NCBI GenBank assembly: GCA_025999335.1
Contig: AP024681.1
Location: 227,656 to 291,655, forward strand
Direction: 5' to 3'
Length of the DNA stretch: 64,000 bases
Source: Candidatus Parcubacteria bacterium
Lineage (GTDB): Bacteria > Patescibacteriota > Minisyncoccia > UBA6257 > HR35
A program made the position numbers and the translations under genes. The first letter of the stretch is position 1. Every line of letters begins with the position of its first letter. Below the pieces are notes generated by a model. It did not search any database. It was not told where the DNA came from and was given only the letters and a program-made list of their open reading frames with translations. Positions 9,951-39,900 of the stretch are shown here, one piece after another.

Positions 9951-9999
9951 AATTTAAAAAAATAATTAATTACGAAGACGCTTGAAATTAATAATTAAT

Positions 10000-10530: not shown

Positions 10531-10603
10531 CTTAAAAATTTTAAAAAAAATTAATTATAATATTATAACATAATTAATAAATAAGTTTGAGCTTTAATGA
10601 TAA

Positions 10604-11170: not shown

Positions 11171-11176
11171 ACAACA

Positions 11177-12424: not shown

Positions 12425-12431
12425 TAAAAAT

Positions 12432-14156
12432 TTAAATTTTAATCACTACTGGCAAAACCATTGGACGTCGTTTAGTCTTTTTAAATAAAAACTCAGCAAT
12501 ATCTTCTTTTAAACTATACCTTATTTGTTCTTCTTGTACAGCTGGCTTTTCTTCGCCAGAAAATCTAATATGTTTATCAACAATTTTTCTAATAAGGTTT
12601 CGAACTTCTTTTAATAATTCTTTTGATTCTCGTAAATAAACAAAGCCGCGGGAAATAATATCCGGACTTGTACGTAATTGGCCACTAGCTGAATCAATCG
12701 TCACAATTACCACAAAAATTCCATCATTGGCTAAATTCTGTCTATCTCGTAAAACAACTTCCTGAACATCACCAACACTTAAACCATCAACATAAACTAT
12801 ATTTGCCGGAACTTTTTCATTGCTAACAAAAACTTTATCCGGTAGAGCTTTGATAATCTGTCCATTTTGCGCTAAAAGAACTCTTTCTTTTGACATTCCA
12901 ATATTAAGACATATTTCCTCAGTCGCCTTCATCATAAAATAATGGCCGTGAATTGGCATTACATATTCAGGCTTAACTAAATTGATTAACAATTTAATCT
13001 CATTAGAAAAAGCATGCCCTGAAGCATGAATATCCATCATTTGATAATGAAAAACATTAGCACCTTGTTTTTGTAAATCATCTTTCAACTCTTGAATAAT
13101 TCTTTCATTGTTAGGAATAACTGAAGAAGAAAATATTACTGAATCGCCGGGAATAATTTTAAAATACTTATGCTCGCCGGCAGCAATGCGCATTAAGGCT
13201 GAACCTTCTTCAGCTTGTGAACCGGTACAAATTATTGTTACTTGATTAGGCGGCAAACGAAAACTATCTTCAGGCTTGATAAAAATACCCTTAGGAGTTT
13301 GAATGTATTTTAAAGCTTTGGCAACTTCTACATTTGTTTTCAAAGTTCTGCCGTCTAAAACAACCTTTCTTCCATAAATACCCGATAACCAAACGATTTG
13401 CTGAATTCTTTCTAATAAAGAAGCAAATGTAGCAGCGATAATTCTACCTTGAGCTTTGCGAAAAATAGTCTCTAAATTTTCCATAATTACCTTCTCGGAA
13501 GCAACAAAACCGCTTTGAAAAGCATTAGTAGAATCAACCATTAAAACACGCACTCCGCCCAATGACAGCTTAACAATCCGCGATAAATCTGCAGGTTTAT
13601 CAAAAAAAGGAGAAAAATCTATTTTAAAATCACCAGTATGAATAATATTACCTACAGGCGTTTTAATCAAATAACCAATAGAATCAGGAATATTATGATT
13701 AACATGGAAATAATTAATAATAAAAGAACCAAGCTGAAAAAATCTAAATTTATCCTTTTTAATTTCGTGAATTTCTAGTTTAGGAGCATTAGGAAAATCT
13801 AATTGTCTCTTTAGAATAATTCCCTTAGCTAAAGGAGTGGCATAAATTGGAGGGTTGCCTATTCTTTCAATTAAATAAGGAATAGCGCCAATATGATCAT
13901 AGTGTCCATGGGTAATTAAAATACCTAAAATTTTATCTTTGTTGTGTTCTAAATATTCGACATTAGGAATGGTAAAATCAATGCCCGGCATTTCTTCATA
14001 ATAAGGATAACCTAAACCAAAATCAATAATAATAATCTCTTTATTGTTTAATTCCAAAGCCATCATATTTCTACCAACTTCTTCCAAACCTCCCAAAGGA
14101 ATAATTTTTAATTCGCCTTCATATTGTTTTAACGGCATTTGAGTTTTTGCTTTCAT
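12432..14156 (-). CDS. rnj: Ribonuclease J (beta-CASP metallo-beta-lactamase RNase)
   Basis: 574 aa; HGHYDHIG (HxHxDH) and the beta-CASP region ...DSTNA...HASGHA; typical RNase J length. Confidence 0.75.
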   Translation of the reverse strand: MKAKTQMPLKQYEGELKIIPLGGLEEVGRNMMALELNNKEIIIIDFGLGYPYYEEMPGIDFTIPNVEYLEHNKDKILGILITHGHYDHIGAIPYLIERIGNPPIYATPLAKGIILKRQLDFPNAPKLEIHEIKKDKFRFFQLGSFIINYFHVNHNIPDSIGYLIKTPVGNIIHTGDFKIDFSPFFDKPADLSRIVKLSLGGVRVLMVDSTNAFQSGFVASEKVIMENLETIFRKAQGRIIAATFASLLERIQQIVWLSGIYGRKVVLDGRTLKTNVEVAKALKYIQTPKGIFIKPEDSFRLPPNQVTIICTGSQAEEGSALMRIAAGEHKYFKIIPGDSVIFSSSVIPNNERIIQELKDDLQKQGANVFHYQMMDIHASGHAFSNEIKLLINLVKPEYVMPIHGHYFMMKATEEICLNIGMSKERVLLAQNGQIIKALPDKVFVSNEKVPANIVYVDGLSVGDVQEVVLRDRQNLANDGIFVVIVTIDSASGQLRTSPDIISRGFVYLRESKELLKEVRNLIRKIVDKHIRFSGEEKPAVQEEQIRYSLKEDIAEFLFKKTKRRPMVLPVVIKI

Positions 14157-14223
14157 AATTAATCAATAAACTAATAAATATAGAAAATTAATTAAATGAC
14201 CGTCGATATATTTTAAAAAGGTG

Positions 14224-14306
14224 TGCCCCGGGTGAGATTTGAACTCACACGAGTAAAACTCGCAAGGCTCTGAACCTTGTGCGTCTGCCAATTCCGCCAC
14301 CGGGGC
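14224..14306 (-). tRNA. tRNA-Leu (anticodon CAG)
   Basis: Reverse complement reads GCCCCGGTGGCGGAATTGGCAGACGCACAAGGTTCAGAGCCTTG...long variable arm...GAGTTCAAATCTCACCCGGGGCA; anticodon stem CAAGG/CCTTG with loop TTCAGAG. Confidence 0.7.
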
Positions 14307-14315
14307 AAAGTAAAT

Positions 14316-14750
14316 TTAATACTCATTAAAATTCAAATCAATTATTCCGCCACTTAAATCAATAGTTACGGTTGCTTTTAAGTTTTTTCTTAATTCGCTA
14401 CTTGTCAAATAACCATTAATATCAATTACTTTAGTTGTGCTATTTAACGAAACAACTGAATAGCGAAAATAATTTCCACTAGGCATAACAAAAATAGCAT
14501 TAGTGGTAGCAAAATTTGGATTCTTGTTAATGTTATACAAAGAATAATTTAAACCGCTAAAAACTAACGATTTTAAAACGATATATTGATTAAACTCGCG
14601 GTTAAAATTTAAATTAACAATAGATAAATTCCCTAATATTATAATAAAAAAAATAATAAAAATCAATATTAAATTAACCAAAAGAAAAGTTATTTGTCCT
14701 TTCGTTTTTCTTTGAAAAAATCCTTTTAATAATTCGTTAATAAACATCAT
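14316..14750 (-). CDS. Pseudopilin-like protein (type IV pilin-like N-terminus)
   Basis: N-terminal G-QITFLLVNLILIFIIFFIIILG hydrophobic helix after a short basic leader; no Glu at +5. Confidence 0.35.
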   Translation of the reverse strand: MMFINELLKGFFQRKTKGQITFLLVNLILIFIIFFIIILGNLSIVNLNFNREFNQYIVLKSLVFSGLNYSLYNINKNPNFATTNAIFVMPSGNYFRYSVVSLNSTTKVIDINGYLTSSELRKNLKATVTIDLSGGIIDLNFNEY

Positions 14751-14755
14751 AAAAA

Positions 14756-15679
14756 TTAAAAATTCGTTAAAATAATATTGTAATAATTAAAAAAATCGCT
14801 ATTTTGTTTGCCAATTTCAATATCGCCGCTAACAGTTGAAGAAATAAATTGCCAATTAAATTTTCTAAAAATTAATCCTGGATTAGATATTAAGTTTATA
14901 GAAGAAATTTCAGGATTAGCTTCTGCTAAATACAATCTGCCTTTATCTTTATAAACAAGCAACCAACCAATAACATCATTCCAGGCATAACCCTGTAAGT
15001 CTAAATTATCTAAAGTTATTTTAAAATTAGTCGAACTACAAACATCTAAATCTTGACAATTAAAAGCAATCCAACCAATAACATCATTCCAAGCAAAACC
15101 ACGAAACTCATTATTGCGATCTATGCAAACACCATAAACAACCGACTCGCCGGGACTAGATCTAAATTTTATCCAACCAATATTTGGCGACCAAGCATAA
15201 CCAGATAAACTATATGTTGACGAAACTGTTGTTAGATTATTAATTGAACAATTAGAAGAACTTGAAGCAAAGACACCAAAGCCACCACCCTTAAGACTAA
15301 TGCTACCAATGCTTAGATTAGACAAATAACCATAAAAATAATTATCGCTTTTATTTAAACGTGCTGTTTGTCCTAAAAAAATAATATTACTTGTTGTTCT
15401 TGAATCAAAAATCACTTCCCAATCAGTAAGAATATTTAAATTTTTTGCTTGCCAAGCTAAATTATTCATATTAAAAAAAATATTTTTTGCTTCGATGGCA
15501 GAAGAATTTTTATTATAAAAATCAACATAATATTTCAAAAAATGATTAAGGATATTAAAAATAAGAATAATAATAAAAGAAAAAATCAAAAAATACAACA
15601 AAATTTCTACTAAAGTAAAAGCCCGGGAGTTATTATTAAAACAGACATTTAGTTTATGTAAAAACTTATTGTGACGCAT
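14756..15679 (-). CDS. Type IV pilin-like protein with internal GYAWNDVIGW repeats
   Basis: Prepilin-type N-terminus NNSRA-FTLVEILLYFLIF; three copies of G(Y/F)AW(N/S)(D/P)(V/N)IGW(I/L). Confidence 0.5.
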   Translation of the reverse strand: MRHNKFLHKLNVCFNNNSRAFTLVEILLYFLIFSFIIILIFNILNHFLKYYVDFYNKNSSAIEAKNIFFNMNNLAWQAKNLNILTDWEVIFDSRTTSNIIFLGQTARLNKSDNYFYGYLSNLSIGSISLKGGGFGVFASSSSNCSINNLTTVSSTYSLSGYAWSPNIGWIKFRSSPGESVVYGVCIDRNNEFRGFAWNDVIGWIAFNCQDLDVCSSTNFKITLDNLDLQGYAWNDVIGWLLVYKDKGRLYLAEANPEISSINLISNPGLIFRKFNWQFISSTVSGDIEIGKQNSDFFNYYNIILTNF

Positions 15680-16109
15680 ATTTTAGTTTAGCTATCAAAA
15701 AATTATCTGTAAATTTAAGATTTAAATATTCAACACTAATTGTAGTCATTTTTAAGTCGCTATTACCTCCATAATTACCTATTTGAAAACTAAAACGATA
15801 AAAACCGCCGCTACCAAGATTAACATTTTCTTGTCCATTCTTAATAAGCCATGAAGAGGTAGCTTTTTCAAAATAGTAGTTATTGCCAACAATTAAACTA
15901 TTAATAACACTCCAGTTATTTTTTGATAAAGCTATAAGAATATTGCGATATTTCTCAAATCCAAAAATAGCTACATTTTCGTTTAAACTTTGATAATCGT
16001 AAGATTTTTGCAGAACTAACGAAAAATTAATAAAAAGGACTAAAATAATCGAAACCAAAAGCAAGGTGACTAAAATCTCAACTAAAAGTTGCCCATGGTT
16101 AAAATTCAT
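15666..16109 (-). CDS. Type IV pilin-like protein
   Basis: N-terminus [23 protein letters not shown] (G at -1, E at +5); its start overlaps the fusA stop (ATGA). Confidence 0.5.
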
Positions 16110-22949: not shown

Positions 22950-23039
22950 GGAAGGGTGCCGGAGTGGTTTAACGGAACGGCCTGGAGAGCCGTGCTCTCG
23001 CAAGAGGGCTCGTGGGTTCGAATCCCACCCCTTCCGCCA
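22950..23039 (+). tRNA. tRNA-Ser (anticodon GGA), CCA encoded
   Basis: GGAAGGGTGCCGGAGTGGTTTAACGGAACGGCCTGGAGAGCCGT + long variable arm + GTGGGTTCGAATCCCACCCCTTCCGCCA; anticodon stem ACGGC/GCCGT, loop CTGGAGA. Confidence 0.8.
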
Positions 23040-23187
23040 ATCAGTTCCGCCAATCAGTAAATATTAAACCTACTCCATTCTTTGCAAAAATTCGCCAGTT
23101 GATTTTAAAGTAAAAATTTAATTTTTTTTGTATTCGTATTTTTGTTAAAATCTATTGTAAACTTCAAAATTTGATATAATTAAAAAT

Positions 23188-24123
23188 ATGAAAATAAAAT
23201 TAATTTTCTTATTTTTTCTTATAGGACTTATTCCAGTTGTTTTTCAAATACAAAATGTCAAAGCGCTTAGTTGTTTACGCTTAAGTTTTCCTATTCTTGG
23301 AATTGTTAGCGATATCTCAGTAAAAGGATCGGAAACAGAAATAGTTTTGGATAAATTTTATACATTCAATACGTCAGACATCGATAATGAGAAAATAATT
23401 AGCATTGACCGGTATGAAAATATTGTTAAAGAATATATAGAAAATAATTTTCAACTTCCTGAGAAGCCTTCGTTACAAGATAATGATCCGACAAGCAAAG
23501 ATATAATTAATAAGGTTTTTATTCCTACTAATGCTTTTAAGCAAATACAAATTGATAAAAATGACATTATTATAAATGGACCTCCGTTTTATGTTTGTAC
23601 TTACAGATTCACCGGAATATTTACAAAAGATGGAAAACTAAAAAGTGCAATAATAAATGACAACTATCAAGATTACTCCTATCGCAATAATAAACTAGAG
23701 GTAGAAGCTGGCAAGGAGCTTGAATGTTATGAGCATAATATATGTAAAATTGAAGTCAATTTTAAGCTAGATGATAAATCATTTAATTTGTCCCCACCTC
23801 AATTATACAAACCAACAGGAAGTTCAATTAAATCCATTTCTCTCTTAGACAGCAGTAGCATAAAAAAAGGAAACGATGGGCGACCAGTAGTCTTTGATTG
23901 GGGTCTAAATACTTATGTAACTTATGTGTTGAATTTTTCAGATTTTACAAACCATTCAATTTCAAGCTCTACGCCAACACCAAATATAAAACCTGAACCA
24001 CCATCACCTACAGAACAAAAATCACTAACACCAACGCTATCAGAAAAAACCACAAAAAATTTCTTCCAAAAAATCTGGCTTTGGCTTATATTATTATTGT
24101 TTAAACAATTTGCAATATATTAA
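23188..24123 (+). CDS. Secreted Cys-containing surface protein with Pro/Thr-rich stalk and C-terminal hydrophobic anchor, unknown
   Basis: Signal peptide MKIKLIFLFFLIGLIPVVFQIQNVKA; five Cys; C-terminal STPTPNIKPEPPSPTEQKSLTPT then IWLWLILLLF TM and a short tail. Confidence 0.35.
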   Translation: MKIKLIFLFFLIGLIPVVFQIQNVKALSCLRLSFPILGIVSDISVKGSETEIVLDKFYTFNTSDIDNEKIISIDRYENIVKEYIENNFQLPEKPSLQDNDPTSKDIINKVFIPTNAFKQIQIDKNDIIINGPPFYVCTYRFTGIFTKDGKLKSAIINDNYQDYSYRNNKLEVEAGKELECYEHNICKIEVNFKLDDKSFNLSPPQLYKPTGSSIKSISLLDSSSIKKGNDGRPVVFDWGLNTYVTYVLNFSDFTNHSISSSTPTPNIKPEPPSPTEQKSLTPTLSEKTTKNFFQKIWLWLILLLFKQFAIY

Positions 24124-24472
24124 TATATACTATTATTAGTACAAATCTTGATGTAACAATAGCTGGAACAAAATCAAATTGGAAATTTTTGCTTCAATAT
24201 CTTTTTCTTTTTTCAAAAAGTATTTTCAAATTGAAAATTTTATAATCCTAATATCGAAAATGGTTTTTTCAATTTTTTATTTAATTAATAAAATAAACGT
24301 TTTTATTAGTTGAGATGCGTATGTGTTTTCTTGACAATTATGTTATAATATAATTTGAATAACTTATATAAAGAGATATATTATTATATTTATATATAAA
24401 ATTTATCAGCTCAATTAATATTACCTAATCATTTTTATAAAAAGGTCGCCGTAAATTTAATTTGTTTAAAAA

Positions 24473-24766
24473 ATGAAACTCAAACCATTGAACGATTATC
24501 TTCTTATTGAACCTTTAAAAGAAGATGAAATTACTAAGGGCGGCATTGTTATTCCTGAAACAGCTAGAGAAGAAAGAACAACTAAAGGTAAAGTTATCGC
24601 TGTAGGTCCAGGAAAACTAAATGATAAAGGCGAACGCATAAAACCAACAATTAAAGAAGGTCAAATGGTTGTCTTTAAAAAATATTCTCCTGATGAAATT
24701 AAAATTGATGATAAAGAATATTACTTTGTTAAAGAAGATGATATTTTAGCTGTTATCGAAAGTTAA
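24473..24766 (+). CDS. groES: Co-chaperonin GroES
   Basis: MKLKPLNDYLLIEP...TKGGIVIPE...; 97 aa; upstream of groEL. Confidence 0.9.
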   Translation: MKLKPLNDYLLIEPLKEDEITKGGIVIPETAREERTTKGKVIAVGPGKLNDKGERIKPTIKEGQMVVFKKYSPDEIKIDDKEYYFVKEDDILAVIES

Positions 24767-24875
24767 TAATGCAAACTTATATAAACTTTAGTGAACAAAG
24801 GCGAACTATTTATTATAAACATCTGGGTTTTAAATAAAAAATCAAATATAAAATTGTCGAAAATTAAATCTTTGA

Positions 24876-26525
<1,650 letters not shown>

Positions 26526-26544
26526 TTAAAAATTTAAAAACATT

Positions 26545-26889
26545 ATGGCAAGAGTTAAAAGAGGTACTATTAAACACAAAAAAAGAGAGAAAATTTTAAA
26601 ATTAACCAAAGGTTTTCGTGGTCATTACTCAAAAAAGAAAAAGTTCGCCAAAGAAGCTTTATTGCATGCTTTTAAACATTCTTATGAAGATAGAAAAAAG
26701 AAAAAAAGAGATTTTCGAAGGTTATGGCAAATAAGAATCAATGCTGCGGCGAGAACTCATAATTTAACTTATAGTACTTTGATCAATAGATTAAAGAAAA
26801 ACAATATAGCTCTCAATAGAAAAATTCTTAGCCAACTAGCTAAAGAACATAGTTCTATTTTTACACGTTTATTAGAATACGCAAAATAA
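26545..26889 (+). CDS. rplT: 50S ribosomal protein L20
   Basis: MARVKRGTIKHKKREKILKLTKGF...; L20-like. Confidence 0.85.
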   Translation: MARVKRGTIKHKKREKILKLTKGFRGHYSKKKKFAKEALLHAFKHSYEDRKKKKRDFRRLWQIRINAAARTHNLTYSTLINRLKKNNIALNRKILSQLAKEHSSIFTRLLEYAK

Positions 26890-26892
26890 AAA

Positions 26893-27405
26893 ATGTTAGG
26901 CGGAATTCATTTTTTTGCTGGTGCTTCGACATCGATTTTTCTAACTAATAATTATTTGCTTGCCCCAATAATTGGCATTGTCTCTCACCATCTTTTAGAT
27001 CGTTTACCTCATTTAGATTTAAATATAATGCAACCTCCTAATGACCATTTATCAACGGCTAATATGAAAGTTAAATTGTTTGTTTTTGGAGAATTGGTTA
27101 TCTTAACTTTATTTACATTAATGCTAACAATTGAATATTTTAATAGTTCGTTAGTTCATCTAACTATAGCTATTTTAGGAGGTTTAGGAGGTATTGCTCC
27201 TGATGTTTTTACTATTTTATTTAAAGAAAAATTAAAAAAATTTAAAGTATTCAAGGCTTATTTTGATTTTCATAAAAATTTTCACTTTAAATTAAAAGAA
27301 AAAAAATTAAAATATTGTTTTTTGCCAATTTTAACGGAAATTATTGTTTTAATAGCAAGCTTTGCTTTAATAGATATCGCCGCTTCTTTTATTTTAACTC
27401 ATTAA
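26893..27405 (+). CDS. Polytopic membrane protein, unknown
   Basis: 170 aa, about four hydrophobic helices. Confidence 0.3.
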   Translation: MLGGIHFFAGASTSIFLTNNYLLAPIIGIVSHHLLDRLPHLDLNIMQPPNDHLSTANMKVKLFVFGELVILTLFTLMLTIEYFNSSLVHLTIAILGGLGGIAPDVFTILFKEKLKKFKVFKAYFDFHKNFHFKLKEKKLKYCFLPILTEIIVLIASFALIDIAASFILTH

Positions 27406-27421
27406 CAATCTTTTGTTTCAA

Positions 27422-28045
27422 TTAATATAATAAATTGATCATAAGTCTTTTATCATTGCCAACCTCTAAAACATTATCATTATCGCCGCTATCATATGAA
27501 GTTTGATCAATGCCGCCATTTTTTTTATAATCAGAAAATTCTAAATTAGCATTTATTTCAAAAGTTGAGCTGTTTCTTTTAAAAACATAAGCGTAAAATA
27601 ATTTTTTATTATAAGAATTAATTGGATCTACCGGGTAAGCAACCAATGGTGGATTAACTAGTGTTGTTAAATCAACCGGCAACCAACCATTGCCATCAAT
27701 ATTTATTAAATTAGAAGAAGATGCTTGTTTTAAACGATAACCGCCTAAAATTAAAGCGCTTAGGTTTTCAACATCAACGGGGACGGAAATAAAAATTGAC
27801 TGTTCGCTTTCTCCAATGCCGGTGTTAGTCGGTCCTAAAGCTAAGGGATTATTTTTATTAAACATTAAATAACTCGTTAAAGCCATTTCCAAAGCCCATA
27901 AATCAGCTATTCGCTTATCGTCCCTACTCTTTTTAAAAAAATTAGCATAATCAAAAACACTAAAGAAAAAAGTCAAAATTATTAACAAAATAAAGACAAC
28001 AATAACAATCTCCAATAAAGTAAGGCCTTTAGATTTAAGAACCAT
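27422..28045 (-). CDS. Pseudopilin / minor type IV pilin-like protein
   Basis: N-terminus MVLKSKG-LTLLEIVIVVFILLIIL (G at -1, E at +5). Confidence 0.55.
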   Translation of the reverse strand: MVLKSKGLTLLEIVIVVFILLIILTFFFSVFDYANFFKKSRDDKRIADLWALEMALTSYLMFNKNNPLALGPTNTGIGESEQSIFISVPVDVENLSALILGGYRLKQASSSNLINIDGNGWLPVDLTTLVNPPLVAYPVDPINSYNKKLFYAYVFKRNSSTFEINANLEFSDYKKNGGIDQTSYDSGDNDNVLEVGNDKRLMINLLY

Positions 28046-28460
28046 TTCTTTGCAAGTATAAATTCAAAAATTTATTAGCGCTTCTTAAGATATCTTTATT
28101 AAAAGTAATTAATTTAAAAGCTTGAATATAGGGCAACCAAACATAACCTTTGTGCTCATCAGAAAGAATAACTTTCTGATCTTTTGCTTGAGCCAAATAA
28201 AAAATCACTTCTTTGATAATAAATTCATTGCGATGCCGAAAATGATAAATGGAATTTTTTTCAAAACCTTTAATTAATTTAACATCCAAGCCTGTTTCTT
28301 CTTTGATTTCTCTTAAAGCAGTTTTATCTGGACTTTCATAAATTTCTAAATGGCCCTTAGGAAAATCCCAATGTCCACCTAAATAATTAAGCAATAAATA
28401 TTCTCGTTTATTACCTTTCTGATAAAAAACAACGGCACCGGCGGAAATTTCTTTACGCAT
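28035..28460 (-). CDS. NUDIX hydrolase
   Basis: Nudix box GHWDFPKGHLE...ALREIKEETGL; 141 aa; 11-bp overlap with the downstream pilin gene. Confidence 0.75.
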   Translation of the reverse strand: MRKEISAGAVVFYQKGNKREYLLLNYLGGHWDFPKGHLEIYESPDKTALREIKEETGLDVKLIKGFEKNSIYHFRHRNEFIIKEVIFYLAQAKDQKVILSDEHKGYVWLPYIQAFKLITFNKDILRSANKFLNLYLQRNGS

Positions 28461-28533
28461 AGATGTTTATAAAAATAATTGTTATAATTATTTGTTATAA
28501 TTATTACTATAATTATTTTAAACTATTTTTAAA

Positions 28534-29844
28534 ATGAAAATTTATTTTTACGGAAGCACAGAAACAGTCACAGGTTCAAATATTCTTCTCGAAGACAATA
28601 ATAGCAAAATTTTAATTGATTGTGGTTTAGTTCAAAAAGAAAGAACTTGCGATATAGAAAATTTTTATCCTTTTCCTTATGATGTTCAATCAATAAAAGC
28701 TGTGCTTTTAACTCATGCTCATTTAGACCATAGCGGCAGATTACCAAAATTAATCAAAGAAGGATTTAAGGGATATGTTTACAGCACGCCTCCTACTAAA
28801 GATTTAGCTAAAGAAATTTTGCTTGATTCTCAAAAAATCATCAATCAAAATTGCCAAGAACTTAATAAACAAAGAATTTACTCTGAAGAAGAAATAGATA
28901 AATTATTAGAACGGTGGCAAACAATAAACTATCATCAGCCGCTAACTATTGATAATTTTAATATTGAGTTTTTTAATAGTGGACATATTCTAGGTTCAGC
29001 TTTTATTAAAATAAATAATTTGGTTATTTCCGGAGATTTAGGCAATAAAGATAAAAGTCTAACGCAAGAATTAGAACCTTTGCCTAATGTCAATTATTTG
29101 GTCTTAGAATCAACTTACGGCAATAGACTGCATAAAAATTTAGATACAAGAATAAATGACCTGGAAAAAATAATTGAGAAAGTAATTTACGAAAAAAGAA
29201 TCTTATTAATACCAACATTTGCTTTAGAAAGAGCTCAAGAAATAATTTTCGACATTCAAAAACTAATTGAAACTAAAAAAATACCGGATATTAAAATTTA
29301 TTTAGACAGTCCTTTGGCAAAAAAAATATCTCGAATTTATGAAAAATATCCTGAATATCTCAATCATAATGCCAGCGTAGAGATATTAACTGAAGGTTTA
29401 TTTAATAATGATTATTTAAAAATTATTGAAAACGATCAAGATGAGTTAGAAATGATTAAAAAACAACCTCCCAAAATAATTCTTGCTGGCTCAGGAATGA
29501 TTATGGGAGGAAAAATAGTAAAAATTTTAGATCAGTATTTAAATAATGAAAAATTATCTATTCTTTTTATTGGCTATCAAGCTCCCGAATCATTAGGCAG
29601 AAAAATTTTAGACGGAGAAATGAAAATTAAAGGCGAAATCTTAACGCTTTTTTCTTATTCAGCTCACCGCGATCAAGCCGGTATTTTAGAGTGGGTAAAA
29701 CCTCAAAGATTTAATTTAAAAGAAATCTTTTTAGTCCATGGCAATAATGATGAAAAAAAAGCCCTTCAAACGCTTATTATGGATAGTTTAGCTCTTAAAA
29801 CCACTATTCCCCATAATAAAGAGAATGTTTTTGAAATTTTGTGA
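28534..29844 (+). CDS. Metallo-beta-lactamase-fold beta-CASP family hydrolase (putative RNA/DNA nuclease)
   Basis: HAHLDHSG (HxHxDH), then D, H...H motifs in beta-CASP spacing; 436 aa; distinct from the RNase J at 12432..14156. Confidence 0.6.
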   Translation: MKIYFYGSTETVTGSNILLEDNNSKILIDCGLVQKERTCDIENFYPFPYDVQSIKAVLLTHAHLDHSGRLPKLIKEGFKGYVYSTPPTKDLAKEILLDSQKIINQNCQELNKQRIYSEEEIDKLLERWQTINYHQPLTIDNFNIEFFNSGHILGSAFIKINNLVISGDLGNKDKSLTQELEPLPNVNYLVLESTYGNRLHKNLDTRINDLEKIIEKVIYEKRILLIPTFALERAQEIIFDIQKLIETKKIPDIKIYLDSPLAKKISRIYEKYPEYLNHNASVEILTEGLFNNDYLKIIENDQDELEMIKKQPPKIILAGSGMIMGGKIVKILDQYLNNEKLSILFIGYQAPESLGRKILDGEMKIKGEILTLFSYSAHRDQAGILEWVKPQRFNLKEIFLVHGNNDEKKALQTLIMDSLALKTTIPHNKENVFEIL

Positions 29845-29925
29845 TATACTATTATTAAGATAATTAAATTAAAATCAATTTATAACCACTTTGGTCGTTA
29901 TTACAATTTTATTTAATTAAAATCA

Positions 29926-30459
29926 ATGTCAAAATATTCCTCTAAACAAAAATTAGGTTTCACTTTAATTGAAATGGCTGTAGTGCTATTGATTATAGGT
30001 GTTTTAGCTGGTATTGTTTTAAGAAATATAGGAACTCAAGGCGTCGATGCCCGTGATAAAAGAAGAATAGCTGATTTAAATAATTTAGGCATTCAGTTAG
30101 TGCAATATTCTAACATAATGGGTACTTATCCGACTACAGCTGCAAGCGGAACAAACTCAGGATGGACTGATAGTTTTAAAGCAGCTTTTGGAAATGCTAA
30201 CTTATCAACTCAATTACCACTACCTCCAACTTCAAATTCAGGAGATGTATATCACTATTTCCCTTGCTCTAGAGGAGGGGCAACTGGAACAGCGTTTGTC
30301 TTAAGAGCTAAATTAGAACAATCAGCGAATACAGCACCAGCTTTATATCGTCAATCATATAATTCAAGCTCTGAGCCATCTGGATGGTCGTGTACTGCGC
30401 CTAATGGAACAAGCTTTGATTGCCAAGCTTCAAATAATTACTTTTGTTATACTCAATAA
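29926..30459 (+). CDS. Type IV pilin (candidate major pilin)
   Basis: Class III signal KQKLG-FTLIEMAVVLLIIGVLAG; 177 aa; C-terminal Cys pair (WSCTAPNGTSFDC) for the disulfide-bonded D-region. Confidence 0.7.
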   Translation: MSKYSSKQKLGFTLIEMAVVLLIIGVLAGIVLRNIGTQGVDARDKRRIADLNNLGIQLVQYSNIMGTYPTTAASGTNSGWTDSFKAAFGNANLSTQLPLPPTSNSGDVYHYFPCSRGGATGTAFVLRAKLEQSANTAPALYRQSYNSSSEPSGWSCTAPNGTSFDCQASNNYFCYTQ

Positions 30460-30522
30460 AACTCAATAAAATAAAAAGTTTTTATTATTTAAAAATTAAA
30501 TAGACTTTTCATTTTTCACTTT

Positions 30523-31200
30523 ATGCACGGTTTCACTTTAATTGAAGTTACGATTGTTATTTTAATTATTACCTTGCTTATATCTATTGCTCTTAAATAT
30601 AGTTTTATTAATAACGAAGTTTTAGAATTAAAAAACGCAACTTATAGCCTTAGCTCCTATTTAGGACAATTAAAAGATATATCTTTTAGCCGAAAAAATG
30701 TTGATGGTTATGCAACAGATCAAAGTGCTTGTGCTTATGGATTAAAAATTTCTTCATCTTCTTATATAGCTAAAGCTTTTGTAACTAGCACTAGAGCTGA
30801 TTGCGATAAAATAGCCTCAAATACTCCTGCAGAATTTCAAGATGGCAATATTTATATTACTAAAAATTTTGATTTAGTAACAACTTCTGATTATTACAAT
30901 ATTATTAATGAACAATTTAATAATATTAAAATCTCCATAGCAACATCGGCAAACGAAAATTGCGAACCTTTTCCAGGTGATCTTCTTGAAATCAATGATA
31001 GTATACTTATAAGTTTTTATAATCCTTTTGGTGATTTTATTGTTATCAACGACTCCAATGAAAAAATATTCAATTCAAGAGAAATCGGTGTAAATCAAAG
31101 CGTTTATGTATGTTTAAAATTAAAATCATCAATTAACAACGAAGAACGTTTAATTATTCTTAATAAATTAGGGCAAATAAAAACAGTTCTTTTTAAATAA
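30523..31200 (+). CDS. Type IV pilin-like protein (minor pilin)
   Basis: MHG-FTLIEVTIVILIITLLIS. Confidence 0.55.
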   Translation: MHGFTLIEVTIVILIITLLISIALKYSFINNEVLELKNATYSLSSYLGQLKDISFSRKNVDGYATDQSACAYGLKISSSSYIAKAFVTSTRADCDKIASNTPAEFQDGNIYITKNFDLVTTSDYYNIINEQFNNIKISIATSANENCEPFPGDLLEINDSILISFYNPFGDFIVINDSNEKIFNSREIGVNQSVYVCLKLKSSINNEERLIILNKLGQIKTVLFK

Positions 31201-31262
31201 AAAAATATATTTTAAAATATTTTTAAAATAAAATTTATAAACGATGCTTAGCAAATTAAATT

Positions 31263-31754
31263 ATGAAATTAATAAATAACAAAGAAAAAGCTTTTACTTT
31301 AGCGGAAATAATTATTGCTTTATTAATTATTGGCATTTCTGTGGCAGCTTTAACAAGATTAGCTATTAATTACATAGTTTCTTTATCTTTAGCCAAAGAA
31401 CAACTTTTAGCTATTTATGTTACCCAAGAAGGTTTAGAACTTGCCACAGCTTTAAGAAATAGCGCTCCAACTGGTTCAAACAACAGATTTCAAGTGCCTA
31501 TTAACACAACTTCTAACGCAATATCAACTTATTGTTTAGATTTTAATTCAAGCTCTAAAGAAATTACTACTACAACTGACTGTGCTGTTTCTTGGAATCG
31601 AAAATTCACGCGCGAAATTATTTATCAAACCTTAGCAAGAGCAAACCCTGGAGGCGATGATTATATAATAAGCATTATGTCTAGTTCAACATATAATCAA
31701 GAACCTCGATTTAGTTTAAATCAAAAAATTGTTCATACAGGTTATATAAGATGA
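31263..31754 (+). CDS. Type IV pilin-like protein (minor pilin)
   Basis: NNKEKA-FTLAEIIIALLIIGI (Ala at -1). Confidence 0.5.
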   Translation: MKLINNKEKAFTLAEIIIALLIIGISVAALTRLAINYIVSLSLAKEQLLAIYVTQEGLELATALRNSAPTGSNNRFQVPINTTSNAISTYCLDFNSSSKEITTTTDCAVSWNRKFTREIIYQTLARANPGGDDYIISIMSSSTYNQEPRFSLNQKIVHTGYIR

Positions 31755-32296
31755 CTAAAAAGAATAAAGCTTTTACTTTAATAGAAACAGTGGTAGTAAT
31801 TATGTTGTTTATTTTTGCGATTGTAATTATAGCGCAATTGTATATTAGTTTAACCAAGGCTGCTTTAGATTTACAACAACGACATATAGCTATAAATTCC
31901 ATTCACTCAGGTTTAGAAAAAATATATAGCGAATTGAAAAATGGATTCAGTTTTACAATAACAGATAATTCAATACTTTTTAAAGACAAATTATGTGAAA
32001 CCGCTATGATTAATTTTGATTCCAATAGGTTACTACTATATTACAATAGCTCATCATTGTTTAATAAAGATTTTGTTGAATTAGAGGATGTGAAAATTTA
32101 TGGTTATAATCCATCTACAACACCTAGCGCTAGTTACTATTATCAACATTCATCATCAACAAAATTAATAGTTATTGACTATTATTTTTATATAAAAAGT
32201 CCCATTACAACAAAAACACCTTTATTTATTAGGCAAAGCATTGCTCCTTTAAATAGTTCCAAGGCCCAAATAGTAAATCGTTGTAAATTTGAATAA
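31751..32296 (+). CDS. Type IV pilin-like protein (minor pilin)
   Basis: KKNKA-FTLIETVVVIMLFIF; ATGA overlap with the upstream gene. Confidence 0.5.
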   Translation: MTKKNKAFTLIETVVVIMLFIFAIVIIAQLYISLTKAALDLQQRHIAINSIHSGLEKIYSELKNGFSFTITDNSILFKDKLCETAMINFDSNRLLLYYNSSSLFNKDFVELEDVKIYGYNPSTTPSASYYYQHSSSTKLIVIDYYFYIKSPITTKTPLFIRQSIAPLNSSKAQIVNRCKFE

Positions 32297-32792
32297 ACAA
32301 TTAATAATTTTTAATTTTATGACAATAAATAATCAAAAACATAAAGCACAAGTTTTACTCATCACCATCTTTATTCTAACCATTGCTTTAGTCGGTATGT
32401 TTTTTATTTTAAATCCAATAAAAATAAAGTTATTATCAATTCAAAATTTCGCCAATACCTATAAAGCCTACAATAATGCAATTAGCGGCTTAAATCTATA
32501 CACTCTGTGTATAAGTAGTGACGAAACATCAATGGAAAACTCTAGTGCTTGCGTTAATTTTATGTCTATCATAGAAACTTCAACAATAAATAATACTAGT
32601 TATTGTTACGAAAGCTACCTAAATAGCGGAACTTGCACAACCGCAACTATTCGCAGTACAGGAACTGATACTGATTTAAAATTTGAAATAAATGTTTACA
32701 AAATGCAAATCGTTTCTACTCGTACTATTTATAGACTTAGCTCAGGTGAATATAAGAATAACATAAAAAATATTCTTGAATACATAGAATAA
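32289..32792 (+). CDS. Membrane-anchored pilus-associated protein (PilX-like?), unknown
   Basis: N-terminal TM without a prepilin cleavage motif; last gene of the pilin run; Cys-containing. Confidence 0.3.
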   Translation: MNKQLIIFNFMTINNQKHKAQVLLITIFILTIALVGMFFILNPIKIKLLSIQNFANTYKAYNNAISGLNLYTLCISSDETSMENSSACVNFMSIIETSTINNTSYCYESYLNSGTCTTATIRSTGTDTDLKFEINVYKMQIVSTRTIYRLSSGEYKNNIKNILEYIE

Positions 32793-32922
32793 ATATTATT
32801 CATTAATTCTATTGTCTAATTACAAATAAGTTTTTTCTTAAGCATAAAATTGAGTAAAATATTAAAAAGCAAAGTTTTTTAGCTTGGTTTTATTATTATT
32901 ATTGAATTAATCAAATTAATAA

Positions 32923-35007
<2,085 letters not shown>

Positions 35008-35014
35008 TCTATCA

Positions 35015-35254
35015 ATGAAAGAAAATAAAACATTCCGCTATTCATCTTACGATATTGAACAATTGCAAAAAAGTTATGAGAATTTAAAAAAACTGCAAGC
35101 TTTAGCTCGAAAATATTGGCAACAAAAACAATACGAACAATATAAAAAAACACAACAAGAAATAGCCTTGCTTGAAGAAAGCATAAAAATCAAGGAAAAA
35201 TTAATTGAACAATATTTAAAAAATGCAGGAAAGAAAAAAGATCGAAACAATTAG
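35015..35254 (+). CDS. Small coiled-coil protein, unknown
   Basis: 79-aa K/E/Q-rich ORF. Confidence 0.25.
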   Translation: MKENKTFRYSSYDIEQLQKSYENLKKLQALARKYWQQKQYEQYKKTQQEIALLEESIKIKEKLIEQYLKNAGKKKDRNN

Positions 35255-35570
35255 ACGTCTTTCCGAAATCCTTAATAAAGTTAACAATCACAAAAATACT
35301 ATTATTACTATCACTGATATAATTATGCCTTCTAAAGGCGGAGTAATGACAATATATCTTAGCGTTTTTCCTGATAAAAATGAATTAAAAATTATTCAAT
35401 ATTTAAATGCCATAAATTTTAAAATTAAAAAAGAATGCTTAGCCACAATTCGCTTTCGTCATTTACCGCGAAAAATAATTTTTAAAACATCAAAAAGCAT
35501 TAAAGAAGGCGAGGAATTATTAAAATTAATCAATAATTTATCAATCAATGAACAAACAAAACAAACCTAA
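35223..35570 (+). CDS. rbfA: Ribosome-binding factor A-like
   Basis: RIETIRRLSEILNKV...ITITDIIMPSKGGVMTIYLSVF is an RbfA-like KH fold pattern. Confidence 0.45.
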   Translation: MQERKKIETIRRLSEILNKVNNHKNTIITITDIIMPSKGGVMTIYLSVFPDKNELKIIQYLNAINFKIKKECLATIRFRHLPRKIIFKTSKSIKEGEELLKLINNLSINEQTKQT

Positions 35571-35880
35571 AAGAAAAATAATTAGAAAAAAACAACACGG
35601 CGAAAAAATTGAAAAAATCGCTTGCGAATTATTAAAAAACTACAAATATTTAGTTTGGAAACCAATTCGCGTTAAATTTCATTCGCAAGATATTTTCGGC
35701 TTGTTTGATATTATTGCTTTAAATAAAAAAGAATTAAAATTAATTCAAGTACAAAAAGATAGAAAAAGACCTTATAAAATAAAGCAAATTTTTAAACTTC
35801 CCCAACCAAAAAAAATTAAATATGAGCTCTGGGTTTACAAAACCAATGAAAAAAAATTTAAAATTTATGATAAAATATAA
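35548..35880 (+). CDS. Hypothetical basic protein (possible YraN/UPF0102-like nuclease)
   Basis: FDIIALNKKELKLIQVQKDRK resembles the D-x-I-A...E-V-K core; weak. Confidence 0.2.
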   Translation: MNKQNKPKRKIIRKKQHGEKIEKIACELLKNYKYLVWKPIRVKFHSQDIFGLFDIIALNKKELKLIQVQKDRKRPYKIKQIFKLPQPKKIKYELWVYKTNEKKFKIYDKI

Positions 35881-35906
35881 AGTAAATTAATTTTCCTAAA
35901 TCAACA

Positions 35907-36263
35907 ATGACACATTTGTTAATTCAAAAAATAGAAAAAAAATATTTAAGAACAGACTTACCAGAAGTAGCGCCGGGCGATTATGTAAAAATCTGGCAAA
36001 AAATTAAAGACGCCAAAAAAGAAACCTTGCAAACTTTTCAAGGTATTATTATTGCTATCAAAGGAGGCAAAGGCGTTCGAAGAATGATAACTGTCAGAGG
36101 TGAGGCTGCTGGGCAAATGATTGAAAAAACTTATCCCTTTCATTCGCCTATTATTGATAAAATAAAGATCTTAAAAAAAGCTAAAACAAGAAGAGCGAAA
36201 TTATATTTTATTCGTAAATTACATCCTAAAGAAATACGCCGTAAACTAAAAATCACTATCTAA
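35907..36263 (+). CDS. rplS: 50S ribosomal protein L19
   Basis: 118 aa; PEVAPGDYVKIWQKIKDAKKETLQTFQGIIIAIKGGKG...RRMITVR matches L19. Confidence 0.8.
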   Translation: MTHLLIQKIEKKYLRTDLPEVAPGDYVKIWQKIKDAKKETLQTFQGIIIAIKGGKGVRRMITVRGEAAGQMIEKTYPFHSPIIDKIKILKKAKTRRAKLYFIRKLHPKEIRRKLKITI

Positions 36264-36943
36264 ATTTCTATTTTAAAATTTTTTAGAAAAGATAAACGGT
36301 GAATTTTGCTTATTCCCCATCGTTGTAATAAACAATAGTGCTCCTTTGTGCCATAACCTTTATTTTTTTCAAAAGCATAAAAAGGATATTTTTTGGCAAG
36401 ATTAATCATATATCGATCTCTTTTAACTTTAGCTAAAATTGAAGCACCGGCAATAGAACAAAAGCGCTGATCTCCTTTAGTATAATAAAAGGCATTTTTT
36501 AGATGTAAATTTTTAATCTTTAAACCATCAATTAATAAAATTTGAGGCTGAAAATAATTATAAATCTTTATTATTGCTTTAGTAAAAGCATTTTGGATAC
36601 CATATTTATCAATAATTTGATTATTAACCGAATATGTCTTATAGGGCAGTTTATATTTTTTAATTAAGCTAACAAAATAAAGACGTTGTTGTTGCGTTAA
36701 CAACTTCGAATCAAAAAAATAAATTTTGTGTTTTCTTAAAACTTTAATAACTGTTTTATCTATCATTAAACCACCCACAACCAAAGGTCCAGCAATAGCT
36801 CCCCTGCCAACTTCATCAATGGCAACTAAATTGTAAAAATTTTTATTCAAAAAATATTTTTCCCCAAGCCATAAAATTGTTTTTAAATTTTTCTTGGGTA
36901 AAATTTTAAAGATATGGAAAATTTTGTTCATTTGCATACCCAT
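36260..36943 (-). CDS. rnhB: Ribonuclease HII
   Basis: VAIDEVGRGAIAGPLVVGG (RNase HII DEVGRG motif). Confidence 0.8.
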   Translation of the reverse strand: MGMQMNKIFHIFKILPKKNLKTILWLGEKYFLNKNFYNLVAIDEVGRGAIAGPLVVGGLMIDKTVIKVLRKHKIYFFDSKLLTQQQRLYFVSLIKKYKLPYKTYSVNNQIIDKYGIQNAFTKAIIKIYNYFQPQILLIDGLKIKNLHLKNAFYYTKGDQRFCSIAGASILAKVKRDRYMINLAKKYPFYAFEKNKGYGTKEHYCLLQRWGISKIHRLSFLKNFKIEI

Positions 36944-39900
36944 TCACATTATAGCTTATTAGATGGATTGTCCAAAATTGATGGTTTGATTAATAAAGCC
37001 AAGGAATGTGGATACGAAGCTCTAGCTCTTACTGATCATGGCAATTTGTATGGTGCCATTGAATTCTATAAAAAAGCTAAAAAAAATAATCTCAAGCCAA
37101 TCATTGGTGTTGAGATGTATCTAGCGCCTTATAAATTAACTGACAAAGAGAAAAAAATAGATTCTCGCAGTTTTCACTTAACAATTCTAGCTAAAAACAA
37201 TGAGGGCTACAAAAACCTTTTAAAATTAGTCTCAATCGCTTGGCTCGAAGGCTTTTATTACAAACCACGAATTGATAAAGAAACCCTAAGACAATATAGC
37301 CAAGGTTTAATATGTTTATCGGGTTGTCCCAGCGGTGAAATTCCAAGATTAATTTTAAATAACAAATATGAAGAAAGTAAAAAAGTAGCTCTATTCTTTA
37401 AAACAATATTTAACGATGATTTCTATTTGGAAGTAAATTATCACCCCAATTTAGAAAATGCTAAAAAACTAAAAGATGGTTTATTACGCTTAAGCAAAGA
37501 AACAAACATTCCCTTGGTAGCAACGTATGATAGCCATTATTTAAATCATGAAGACAATAAAATTCATGATATTTTCTTAGCCATTCAAACAGGCAAAGAT
37601 ATTGAAGAAACGGAAAGATTAACAATGAAAGATGATGATTTTTCTTTTGCTGACAAAGATACAATTAATAAACTGTATGCTGATATTCCTGAAGCTATGC
37701 GTAATACCGTCAAAATTGCTGAACAAGTGTCTTTAGAAATAGAATTGAACAAACCTAAAATGCCTTTTTATCCATTGCCTGACAATGAAACTGCAGATTC
37801 TTATCTAAAAAAATTGTGCTTAAGTGGAATAAATAAAAGAAATATAACAATGGATGATAATGTTAAACAAAGATTAGAAACGGAATTAAAAATTATTGAA
37901 ATAACCAAATTTGCTTCCTATTTTTTGGTTGTTAGCGATATTGTTAATTTTGCTAAAAATAATAATTTGTCTGTTGGTCCGGGCAGGGGTTCTGTTTCTG
38001 GAAGTTTAGTAGCTTATTTACTTAATATTACCGATATTAACCCTCTAAAATATGGCTTGCTATTTGAACGTTTTTTAACTCCTGACAGGATTGAATTCCC
38101 CGATATTGACATTGATTTCTCTGACACAAAAAGAAGCCAAGTCTTTAATTATCTTAAAAATAAATATGGCAAAGACAAAGTAGCGCAAATTATTACTTTT
38201 GGAAAAATGGCATCAAGGGCAGCTGTTCGCGATGCTGGCAGAGCTTTAGGTTACTCTTTTAGCGTTGTTGATAAATTAGCGAGATTAATACCTGCAAATA
38301 TGCCTTTAAACGAAGCTAAAAAATTAAATGATGTGACAAAATTATTAAAAAATGAACCTTTCTATAAGCAAATTATTGAAACCGCCGAAAAATTAGAAGG
38401 CACAATAAGACACGCTTCAGTTCATGCCTGTGGTTTAGTTATCACGCCTACTACTTTAACAGATTACTTACCTCTTCAATTTGCTCCTAATGAAACTCAA
38501 ACAATCATCTCTCAATATGATATGTACTCTGTCAATGAATTAGGTTTATTAAAAATGGATATTCTGGGTTTAAAAACTCTTTCAATTATTGAAGATACAA
38601 AAAGAATTATTTACGAACGCAAACAAGAAAATGTTAATTTTAATGATGAATTTAATGATAAAGCTACTTTTGATTTATTAAAAAAAGGCTATACTAAAGG
38701 TATTTTTCAATTAGAAGGTAGAGGTATGACACGTTATTTACAACAAATCCAACCAGAAAGAATTGAAGATTTAGTCAGTTTGATTGCTTTATATCGTCCT
38801 GGTCCTATGGAACTAATACCTTCCTATATTCGCAGAAAACAAGGCAAAGAAAAAATAGAATATCCTCATCCTTCACTAGAACCAATTCTCAAAGAAACCT
38901 TTGGCATAATGGTCTACCAAGAACAGTTAATGCAAATGGCTCAAAAATTAGCTAACTATTCTCCCACAGAAGCTGATGTTTTACGCAAAGCTGTAGGAAA
39001 AAAAATAAAACAATTATTGATTAATGAAATAAATAAATTAAAAACAAAAATGATTGATAATGGTATTGATCAAAAAACAGCTGAACAAATAGCCAATTTA
39101 GTTGAACCCTTTGCAAGATATGGTTTTAACAAAAGTCACGCTGTTGCCTATGCCATAATGGGTTATTACACAGCTTATCTAAAAACACATTATACTATTG
39201 AATTTATAACTGCTTGTTTAATTCACAATGCTAAAGATATTGATAAAATTAAATCTTTTCTTGATGATTGTAAAAATTATGGGATTAATATTTTACCGCC
39301 AAGCATTAATGAAAGCAATTATCATTTTACTATTATTAATGATAAGACTATTAGATTTGGTTTAGGTTCTATAAAAAATGTCGGCGAACCTTTGATTAAA
39401 TTTATTGAACAAGAAAGAAAAAATAACGGACCTTATAAAAATTTACTTGATTTTATAAATAGAATTAAATTTAAAGATCTCAACAAAAAAAGTTTAGAAA
39501 GCTTAATCAAAGCAGGCGCCTTTGACGATTTCTATCCCCGACAATTATTAATAGCCAATTTAGATTATATAATTGATTTTATCCAAAAAAATAAAAACAT
39601 TAATCATCACAATTCTTTATTCGGCGTGCAAAATGATTTATCTTTAAAAGAAACAAAGCCCATCGATAAATTACAAATATTACAATGGGAAAAAGAATTG
39701 TTAGGCTTATACATTTCCGGACATCCGTTTGAAAATTTTCAAAATATATTTAAACATAACGGCGTAAAAAATATAAACGAAGTCCGCAATGCTCTAGAAG
39801 GAACGAAAATTGCAACAGCTGGAGTTTTAACAAATCTTGTTAGAAAAATAACTAAAGCAAAAGAACCTATAGCTTACGGAGAATTAGAAGATTTAAATAG

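Follow-up and report, generated by a model that had tools for sequence, protein, structure and literature searches.

Does a type IV pilin gene cluster that encloses a NUDIX hydrolase and a nuclease of the metallo-β-lactamase (MBL) type encode one functional system? This question is raised by positions 27422–32792 of a DNA stretch of 64,000 nucleotides (the window, to which all coordinates refer unless a locus of a relative is named) from a metagenome-assembled genome of a Candidatus Parcubacteria bacterium with a GC content of about 28% (assembly GCA_025999335.1, contig AP024681.1). An earlier note on this DNA had proposed a pilus coupled to nucleic acid processing, such as DNA uptake and scavenging. 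All open reading frames (ORFs) on which that note was built were found in place, with one pilin gene on the minus strand (27422..28045) and five pilin-like genes on the plus strand. The explanation that we favor on balance is a different one. The locus would combine a standard operon for pilins of a type IV pilus (T4P), a lineage-specific module consisting of the NUDIX hydrolase and the minus-strand pilin-like protein P207, and a housekeeping RNase as a neighbor.

Pairing and Fusion of the NUDIX and P207 Genes

The gene for the NUDIX hydrolase (141 amino acids; 28035..28460, minus strand) is the first cistron and is followed by the gene for P207 (protein KatS3mg097_262; 207 amino acids; 27422..28045, minus strand). 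The overlap between both genes that the earlier note had described was confirmed and comprises 11 nt, ATGGTTCTTAA. An assembly artefact behind the split genes was ruled out, since an independent Logan assembly (L001) was identical across positions 23011–38215 and neither of the two ORFs is truncated or ends abnormally.

The gene pair was compared in 29 distinct loci of the close clade, namely the window and 28 distinct relatives (15 fused, 13 split) collected by a metagenome scan with the pilin domain and by look-ups. The NUDIX domain was paired with P207 in every one of them. Both parts are fused in frame in 15 loci, and in the remaining 14 the NUDIX gene lies immediately upstream as a separate gene. 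The split genes overlap by 4, 11 (window), 14 or 26 nt, and two loci have an 8-nt gap. The pairing spans pilin identities of 44–100%. In the relatives with 50–69% identity of the MBL protein (L082, L083, L085, L090) NUDIX hydrolase and P207 form a single ORF of 338–381 amino acids, in which the NUDIX domain is followed by a short basic linker, the site G↓FTLIE (the arrow marks the predicted cleavage position), a hydrophobic helix and the pilin domain.

Sequences from JGI, NCBI, ENA and Logan assemblies yielded about 47 clusters of such fusions at 90% identity (338–404 amino acids); P207 orthologues in unfused form accounted for about 25 clusters. Basic linker, G↓F-T-L/I-x-E site and hydrophobic helix are retained in every fusion cluster, and the strict NUDIX-box pattern is matched by nearly all of them. 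In an alignment of 25 fusions the residues R50, E51, E54, E55, G138, F139 and E143 are invariant. An AlphaFold2 (AF2) model of a fusion computed with these 25 sequences showed the NUDIX fold with a predicted local distance difference test score (pLDDT) above 90, followed by a linker of 7 residues and a long helix. The pilin head was poorly modeled in this first run, which was fixed for P207 by a deeper alignment.

In the main fused clade the conserved Gly is not preceded by any start codon; the Leu codon there is TTA or CTT. Consequently, an internal translation start was ruled out for this clade, and the pilin can arise only from the fusion protein. Two loci, L090 and L116, keep an in-frame ATG (MKRK-GFTIIE) at which translation may start internally. 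In a neighbor-joining tree of the MBL proteins fused and split states are interleaved, and the sister of the window, L082, is fused. Thus, at least three changes of state have occurred. A profile search of 1.84 billion representatives detected no more than two representatives of full-length fusions, corresponding to two clusters at 50% identity, so that the architecture is limited to a narrow lineage. No description of a NUDIX-pilin or NUDIX-prepilin pairing or fusion was found in the full-text literature. One further protein (P0293, 525 amino acids) carries an N-terminal region of about 315 residues with two predicted membrane segments, then an Arg-rich linker, RRRRRSG↓FTLIE and a P207-type pilin domain; it represents either another long N-terminal extension before a prepilin or a gene-call artefact.

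Pilins of the P207 type were also found in a second clade. Here, the P207-type prepilin module makes up the first about 200 amino acids of proteins of 747–1958 amino acids with fibronectin type III (fn3) and immunoglobulin (Ig)-like repeats. These giant pilins are often encoded as two genes in tandem (L163, positions 8001–14286; also L114, L121, L164 and L165; L117, L119 and L125). One lineage of this clade has a gene for a NUDIX protein of 144 amino acids (E-value 1.4e-35) which overlaps the gene for a 1958-residue P207-type pilin by 26 nt; the surroundings are ClpB, SecE and NusG genes, and an MBL gene is absent there. Another lineage (L123) has no NUDIX gene upstream.

These findings bear on the simplest alternative, according to which the NUDIX hydrolase and P207 are unrelated proteins packed into an operon of a streamlined genome. 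The fusions would then be neutral accidents caused by single-base frameshifts and tolerated because the signal anchor of the pilin still works. Operons of Patescibacteria do mix unrelated housekeeping genes, for example RuvA, Mur ligase, MBL and SLOG genes, and overlapping cistrons in different frames can fuse by a single indel. The closest stand-alone NUDIX orthologues of other organisms (P0264, P0266) have no pilin neighbors, and the small number of fusion clusters among the 1.84 billion representatives would also suit an accident. Nevertheless, we regard this alternative as unlikely. The pairing holds in all 29 loci over the whole range of pilin identities, and it recurs in the second clade, where the flanking genes are others and the pilin is a giant protein of a very different kind. 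Moreover, the three or more fusion or fission events led to the loss of neither part, and catalytic residues and cleavage site are intact in the fusions.

P207 as a Prepilin

P207 carries a class III signal peptide: its N-terminus reads MVLKSK-G↓LTLLEIVIVVFILLIILTFFF, with the leader and site MVLKSK-G↓LTLLE. G7 and E12 are invariant in an alignment of 22 orthologues; in an alignment of 38 sequences this holds for T9 and E12, with G7 and F8 conserved to at least 90%. The AF2 model of P207 (mean pLDDT 96) consists of a long N-terminal helix (residues 10–62) and five short β-strands. P207 is 28–34% identical to pilins from operons that encode proteins of PilB and PilC size. The gene order in these operons is response regulator, pilin(s), a protein of 567–572 amino acids and one of 402–413 amino acids, and they contain neither a NUDIX nor an MBL gene. 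P207 is thus homologous to pilins that are encoded together with an assembly ATPase and a platform protein. In one of the close relatives (L090) the NUDIX-P207 module is only 5 kb away from T2SSE and T2SSF genes. Judged by its sequence and its homologues, P207 is a genuine prepilin.

The NUDIX Hydrolase

The NUDIX box of the window protein, GHLEIYESPDKTALREIKEETGL, is intact with respect to the consensus GX5EX7REUXEEXGU, and the protein matched PF00293 above the cut-off (3e-16). A phmmer search of the PDB retrieved CT771 of Chlamydia, human NUDT2, the diadenosine tetraphosphate (Ap4A) hydrolase aq_158 of Aquifex aeolicus and Ndx1 of Thermus thermophilus. In a Foldseek search the AF2 model of an orthologous fused NUDIX domain matched the Aquifex Ap4A hydrolase (entry 3i7u) with a template modeling (TM) score of 0.90 and 39% identity. 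RppH, which binds Ap4A (entries 4s2x and 7sp3), was also among the structural matches. All NCBIfam equivalogs, MutT and RppH included, scored below their cut-offs. At JGI the fusions are named bis(5'-nucleosidyl)-tetraphosphatase.

Thus, the best sequence and structure matches of the window protein are the asymmetrical Ap4A hydrolases (aq_158, NUDT2, CT771, the C. elegans enzyme and Ndx1), with which it shares a size of about 135–150 amino acids and the intact NUDIX box. The known Ap4A hydrolases are free-standing soluble proteins, whereas the NUDIX hydrolase described here is encoded in overlap with a pilin gene or forms the part of a fusion that precedes the pilin cleavage site. By sequence comparison and modeling the protein is Ap4A-hydrolase-like, and Ap4A or other dinucleoside polyphosphates are its predicted substrates. 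It has no signal peptide and should therefore be cytoplasmic. One close stand-alone NUDIX orthologue adjoins NusB and RNase III genes.

The β-CASP Protein and Its Neighborhood

The MBL gene (436 amino acids; 28534..29844, plus strand) is oriented divergently to the NUDIX gene, as the earlier note had stated, at a distance of 73 bp (28461..28533). Its product contains Lactamase_B_6, Beta-Casp (4.7e-29) and RMMBL (3.3e-08) domains. Residues 1–414 align with residues 1–412 of TTHA0252 from Thermus thermophilus (1.4e-64), so that both proteins are colinear over their full length; alignments with aCPSF1/FttA, CPSF73 and IntS11 were weaker. All residues of MBL motifs 1–4 (D, HxHxDH, H, D) and of β-CASP motifs A (D/E), B (H) and C are present (D29, H61xH63xD65H66, H151, D168, E192, H378 and H402), with a His in motif C. 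Only two of these positions vary among 22 homologues: residue 192 is E in 21 sequences and D in one, and residue 402 is H in 16 and Q in six. In the classification of Callebaut from 2002 a His in motif C of β-CASP enzymes reportedly marks the RNA-type and a Val the DNA-type. Taken together, the MBL protein is predicted to be an RNA-type, cytoplasmic RNase of the TTHA0252/CPSF73 type, and it has no signal peptide. TTHA0252 itself is a 5'-3' exoribonuclease which affects global mRNA levels (PMC4229858). The window protein shares with it the three-part layout of MBL, β-CASP and RMMBL domains and all motifs; it differs in that it belongs to another phylum, has an activity predicted from sequence, and is encoded by a gene that divergently adjoins the NUDIX-P207 module in the close clade.

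Other identities were tested and rejected. The RNase J model TIGR00649 reached only 27.9 bits against a cut-off of 400. The true RNase J of the window (PF22505, PF17770) is encoded at 12432–14156, and RNase Y is also encoded. Cas14 of type VII CRISPR systems was the best match of the MBL protein both in the PDB (2.6e-73) and in NCBIfam, over the catalytic 430 residues. However, NF045584 scored 353 bits against a cut-off of 800 and was covered only at model positions 1–433 of 612; a C-terminal part of about 170 amino acids is absent from the MBL protein (436 versus 609 amino acids), and no cas genes were found among the window ORFs scanned. Finally, aCPSF1 was ruled out on score and missing domains.

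The MBL family comprises at least 599 genome-contig loci and about 8000 proteins and is near-universal in Patescibacteria. For comparison, 79 loci of more distant Patescibacteria with 35–43% MBL identity were used. In 78 of them no prepilin-motif gene was found near the MBL gene, and the one exception (L053) has such a gene directly upstream. None of the 79 has a NUDIX gene beside the MBL gene; the NUDIX gene of L066 is five genes away. Altogether, 4 prepilin ORFs and 8 NUDIX ORFs were counted in 1.25 Mb around the MBL genes of the 79 genomes, and no two of these ORFs were neighbors. The MBL neighbors in those of the loci that were checked were RuvA and Mur ligase genes upstream and genes for a SLOG protein and a permease downstream.

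Among the close clade 23 loci could be assessed. The MBL gene is directly divergent from the NUDIX-P207 module in 19 of them, is separated from it by one inserted gene in three (L102, L104, L109) and is absent from one (L096), where the fusion is abutted by the gene of the pilin PilA177 discussed below. The inserted gene belongs to one sub-lineage of the close clade (L102, positions 4485–5549; L104, L109, L100) and encodes 351–359 amino acids with no Pfam match. As a control for inherited gene order, L20 and the 170-residue membrane protein beyond P207 were found to be conserved about as well as the MBL gene. The link of the MBL gene to the NUDIX-P207 module is weak. The adjacency would reflect the clade-level synteny of a near-universal housekeeping gene.

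The divergent region of the window contains two exact tandem copies of TGTTATAATTATT (28480–28492 and 28493–28505, read from the sequence). Each copy includes an extended -10-like element, TGnTATAAT, on the plus strand facing the MBL gene. A promoter and terminator scan of 26800–33100 returned 47 promoter-like sites versus 36.7 expected, which is uninformative in DNA of 28% GC. In fused loci the divergent MBL and fusion genes have their start codons only 14–17 bp apart (L082, 7094–7112; L083, 9984–10001; L085, 9983–10001; L090, 6986–7001), so that both promoters must lie inside the neighboring coding sequence.

The close neighborhood of the two enzymes suggests a second alternative, namely an RNA 5'-end decay pair. 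In Bacillus subtilis the NUDIX hydrolase RppH and the β-CASP enzyme RNase J constitute a 5'-end-dependent mRNA decay pathway. By analogy, the NUDIX hydrolase would strip a 5' pyrophosphate or a nucleoside tetraphosphate (Np4) cap, and the RNase would then digest the RNA in 5'-3' direction. Both genes would share the divergent promoter region, and the pilin part would merely tether the NUDIX hydrolase to the membrane or co-express it there. As in B. subtilis, a NUDIX hydrolase would be combined with a β-CASP 5'-3' exoribonuclease, the activity known for TTHA0252. The divergent adjacency in 19 of the 23 loci with its short gaps in fused loci, the persistence of this adjacency in L090 despite different flanks, the Ap4A-binding RppH among the structural matches, and the stand-alone orthologue beside NusB and RNase III also agree with this idea. 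In contrast to the B. subtilis pair, the top matches of the NUDIX hydrolase are Ap4A hydrolases and not RppH, the RNase is not RNase J, and the adjacency is restricted to one clade: it occurs in none of the 79 other Patescibacteria, and no MBL gene lies near the NUDIX-pilin genes of the second clade. L096 lost the MBL gene and kept the NUDIX-pilin fusion. Furthermore, a plain membrane tether would not need the conserved Gly and Glu5 of the prepilin site. We therefore consider such a decay pair rather improbable.

The proposal of the earlier note, in which pilus, NUDIX hydrolase and β-CASP nuclease form one system for DNA uptake, degradation and nucleotide clean-up, fared worse. The three gene types are adjacent in the window and in most loci of the close clade, and the link of the NUDIX hydrolase to a pilin is real. 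Nucleotide synthesis is missing from Patescibacteria, and a role of pili and Com proteins in uptake has been proposed for these auxotrophs (PMC10633639). Against this stand the RNA-type features of the nuclease (RMMBL domain, His in motif C, colinearity with the exoribonuclease TTHA0252). Its gene lies beside a NUDIX gene in none and beside a prepilin gene in only one of the 79 other Patescibacteria loci. Some close relatives have lost this gene or carry it in a displaced position, and the second NUDIX-pilin clade lacks it. Since both enzymes lack signal peptides, they should not come into contact with extracellular DNA. ComEC, ComEA, ComFC, DprA and DNase gave no Pfam match among the about 49 larger ORFs scanned in the window; the sole ComEC signal was a 15.7-bit match to the MBL domain inside the β-CASP protein. 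In cultured Saccharibacteria, moreover, T4P are essential, whereas growth does not depend on comEC (PMC10633639). DNA uptake is thus not supported by anything found at this locus, and we judge a joint uptake system to be very unlikely.

The Plus-Strand Pilin Genes

A canonical prepilin site, defined as a basic leader, Gly, F/L-T-L-x-E and a hydrophobic helix, is present in five genes: 27422–28045 (minus strand, P207) and 29926–30459, 30523–31200, 31263–31754 and 31751–32296 (all plus strand). Matches to Pfam N_methyl and to NCBIfam IV_pilin_GFxxxE, GspG, GspH, PilV and ComGE were mostly below the cut-offs; the prepilin-motif scan gave concordant results. The sixth gene of the earlier count (167 amino acids; 32289..32792, plus strand; an alternative gene call starts at 32319) has a hydrophobic N-terminal segment only, no Gly/Glu5 site and no Pfam or NCBIfam match. 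This membrane-anchored protein is PilX/ComGG-like by position only, and orthologues occur at the same position in L082, L085 and L096. Of the six pilin-like genes proposed before, five consequently stand on their prepilin sites.

The candidate major pilin PilA177 (177 amino acids; 29926..30459, plus strand; N_methyl 1.6e-06, IV_pilin_GFxxxE above cut-off) has its gene beside that of the MBL protein in most of the close relatives. Its four Cys residues (114, 156, 166 and 174) are all kept in 16 orthologues. The C-terminal disulfide pair postulated in the earlier note is plausible. A minor pilin-like protein with weak GspH/FimU-type similarity follows (225 amino acids; 30523..31200, plus strand). 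Its prepilin motif begins at residue 2, and it scored 22.6 bits with IV_pilin_GFxxxE (cut-off 16.3) and 1e-4 with GspH. The next minor pilin-like protein (163 amino acids; 31263..31754, plus strand; N_methyl 2.4e-06) shows weak PilV/GspI-type similarity (PilV 2.3e-4, GspI 2e-3, both under cut-off). Its gene end is overlapped by 4 nt by the start of a gene for a third minor pilin-like protein with a prepilin motif and weak ComGE/ComGF-type similarity (181 amino acids; 31751..32296, plus strand; ComGE 7.3e-06, ComGF 7.6e-04, both under cut-off).

The plus-strand genes resemble the pilin sets of T4P, Com and type II secretion systems in their class III signals (short basic leader, Gly-1, Phe/Leu+1, Glu+5, hydrophobic helix), in the unidirectional arrangement of a major-type gene with four small genes behind it, and in weak profile matches to GspG, GspH, PilV, GspI and ComGE/GF. 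They would form an operon that encodes PilA177 as its major-type pilin, three minor pilins that carry prepilin sites, and a single PilX/ComGG-like protein. Unlike these known sets, the 64-kb window contains no assembly ATPase, platform protein, PilM/N/O or peptidase among the scanned ORFs, its extra pilin P207 is encoded on the opposite strand and is probably translationally coupled, or else fused, to an enzyme, and the globular domains of its pilins matched no solved pilin by sequence or in Foldseek.

Synteny was assessed with a strict prepilin-motif scan, which may undercount pilins, because phmmer searches with the window pilins were too insensitive. Relatives that keep the NUDIX-P207 module have five, one or none of the plus-strand pilin genes. 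Thus, of the assumed co-occurrence of both enzymes with the pilin set, only the pairing of the NUDIX hydrolase with P207 (fused or upstream in 29 of 29 loci) persisted; the plus-strand pilins vary from 0 to 5, and the MBL gene of the 79 other loci is not tied to pili.

A second pilin-like cluster of three genes is located at 14316–16109 (minus strand) between the EF-G gene and the genes for tRNA-Leu and RNase J. Two of its members, of 147 (GQLLVE) and 307 amino acids (AFTLVE), have prepilin sites, and the third is PilX-like (144 amino acids). Both pilin clusters of the window are each near a β-CASP RNase. Paralogy of the two clusters was rejected, as only the N-terminal helices align.

A Model for the NUDIX-Pilin Module

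The 11-nt overlap suggests coupled translation of the NUDIX hydrolase and P207. In the fused form the NUDIX domain would replace the leader peptide of the pilin. The pilin helix would insert as a signal anchor with its N-terminus inside, which would leave the NUDIX domain on the cytoplasmic side of the membrane, where the prepilin peptidase cuts. Cleavage after the conserved Gly would then release free NUDIX hydrolase and mature pilin at a ratio of 1 : 1, so that fused and split forms would be equivalent. The prepilin peptidase probably separates the fused form in this way. Three observations fit this model: all fusions conserve Gly-1, Phe+1 and Glu+5, internal start codons are lacking, and fused and split states have switched repeatedly. 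The pilus assembly machinery would be encoded elsewhere, and its presence in the genome is assumed.

Most likely, the coupling serves to co-express a hydrolase of dinucleoside polyphosphates, or of Np4 caps, with pilus production. The link would accordingly be of a regulatory or housekeeping nature, most likely with no physical role of the NUDIX hydrolase in the fiber. A stronger version, in which the NUDIX hydrolase is a giant cleavable T4P leader and the polyprotein is split by the prepilin peptidase so that release or activation of the enzyme is tied one-to-one to the supply of pilin, is possible and can be put forward only tentatively. The only published hint at a connection between Ap4A and pili that was found concerns Pseudomonas aeruginosa, where T4P genes are among many genes down-regulated in an apaH mutant (PMC11361744).

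Several points weigh against the combination of a standard pilin operon, a NUDIX-P207 module and a neighboring RNase. A Foldseek search of the PDB with the high-confidence P207 model gave no significant neighbor, and a pilin fold of the globular part is suggested by topology and homology only. The literature yielded no precedent for a prepilin peptidase that processes a folded leader of about 137 amino acids, and no prepilin peptidase, PilB or PilC was detected among the scanned ORFs of the 64-kb window. The gap of 14–17 bp between the MBL gene and the fusion could reflect shared regulation. In L090 the MBL gene stays beside the fusion although all other flanks differ, which exceeds the persistence expected from pure inertia, so that a weak link of the MBL gene is possible.

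Flanking Genes

The locus is flanked by housekeeping genes (groES/EL, L20, ligA, RbfA, L19, RNase HII and DnaE). Convergent with the P207 gene lies a gene for a multi-pass membrane protein with no family match (170 amino acids; 26893..27405, plus strand), which is best treated as syntenic context of the module. Its orthologues (157–173 amino acids, containing SHHLLDRLPH) were found between L20 and the 3' end of the P207 gene in nearly every close-clade locus (L082–L113), often in convergent overlap with the latter.

A secreted Ser/Pro-rich protein of 311 amino acids with no prepilin site is encoded at 23188–24123. At the equivalent position upstream of groES relatives encode a protein of 405–409 amino acids with a prepilin motif and a Laminin_G_3 domain (L083, 3310–4527; L085, 4345–5574). 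Farther away, a type IV secretion coupling protein of the VirD4/TrwB type (507 amino acids; TrwB_AAD_bind 1.2e-11) was detected at 52889–55738 (plus strand). It is preceded by a 436-residue protein with no family match, and dnaG and rpoD are located directly downstream.

Implications

With the adjacent β-CASP enzyme assigned as an RNA-type housekeeping RNase, the tempting story of a nuclease for DNA uptake is removed. For the uncultured Patescibacteria, which depend on hosts, type IV pili are essential organelles of the cell surface, and the pilin repertoires of these bacteria are large and poorly understood. Here, a pilin is always encoded together with an enzyme and often fused behind it, a domain arrangement for which no description was found in the literature. 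If the peptidase indeed cuts the fusion, prepilin peptidases would tolerate large folded leaders of about 140 residues, which would be useful for protein engineering. Pilus biogenesis would then also be linked to the turnover of dinucleoside polyphosphates and nucleotide alarmones or of RNA caps, which would be a new mode of coupling.

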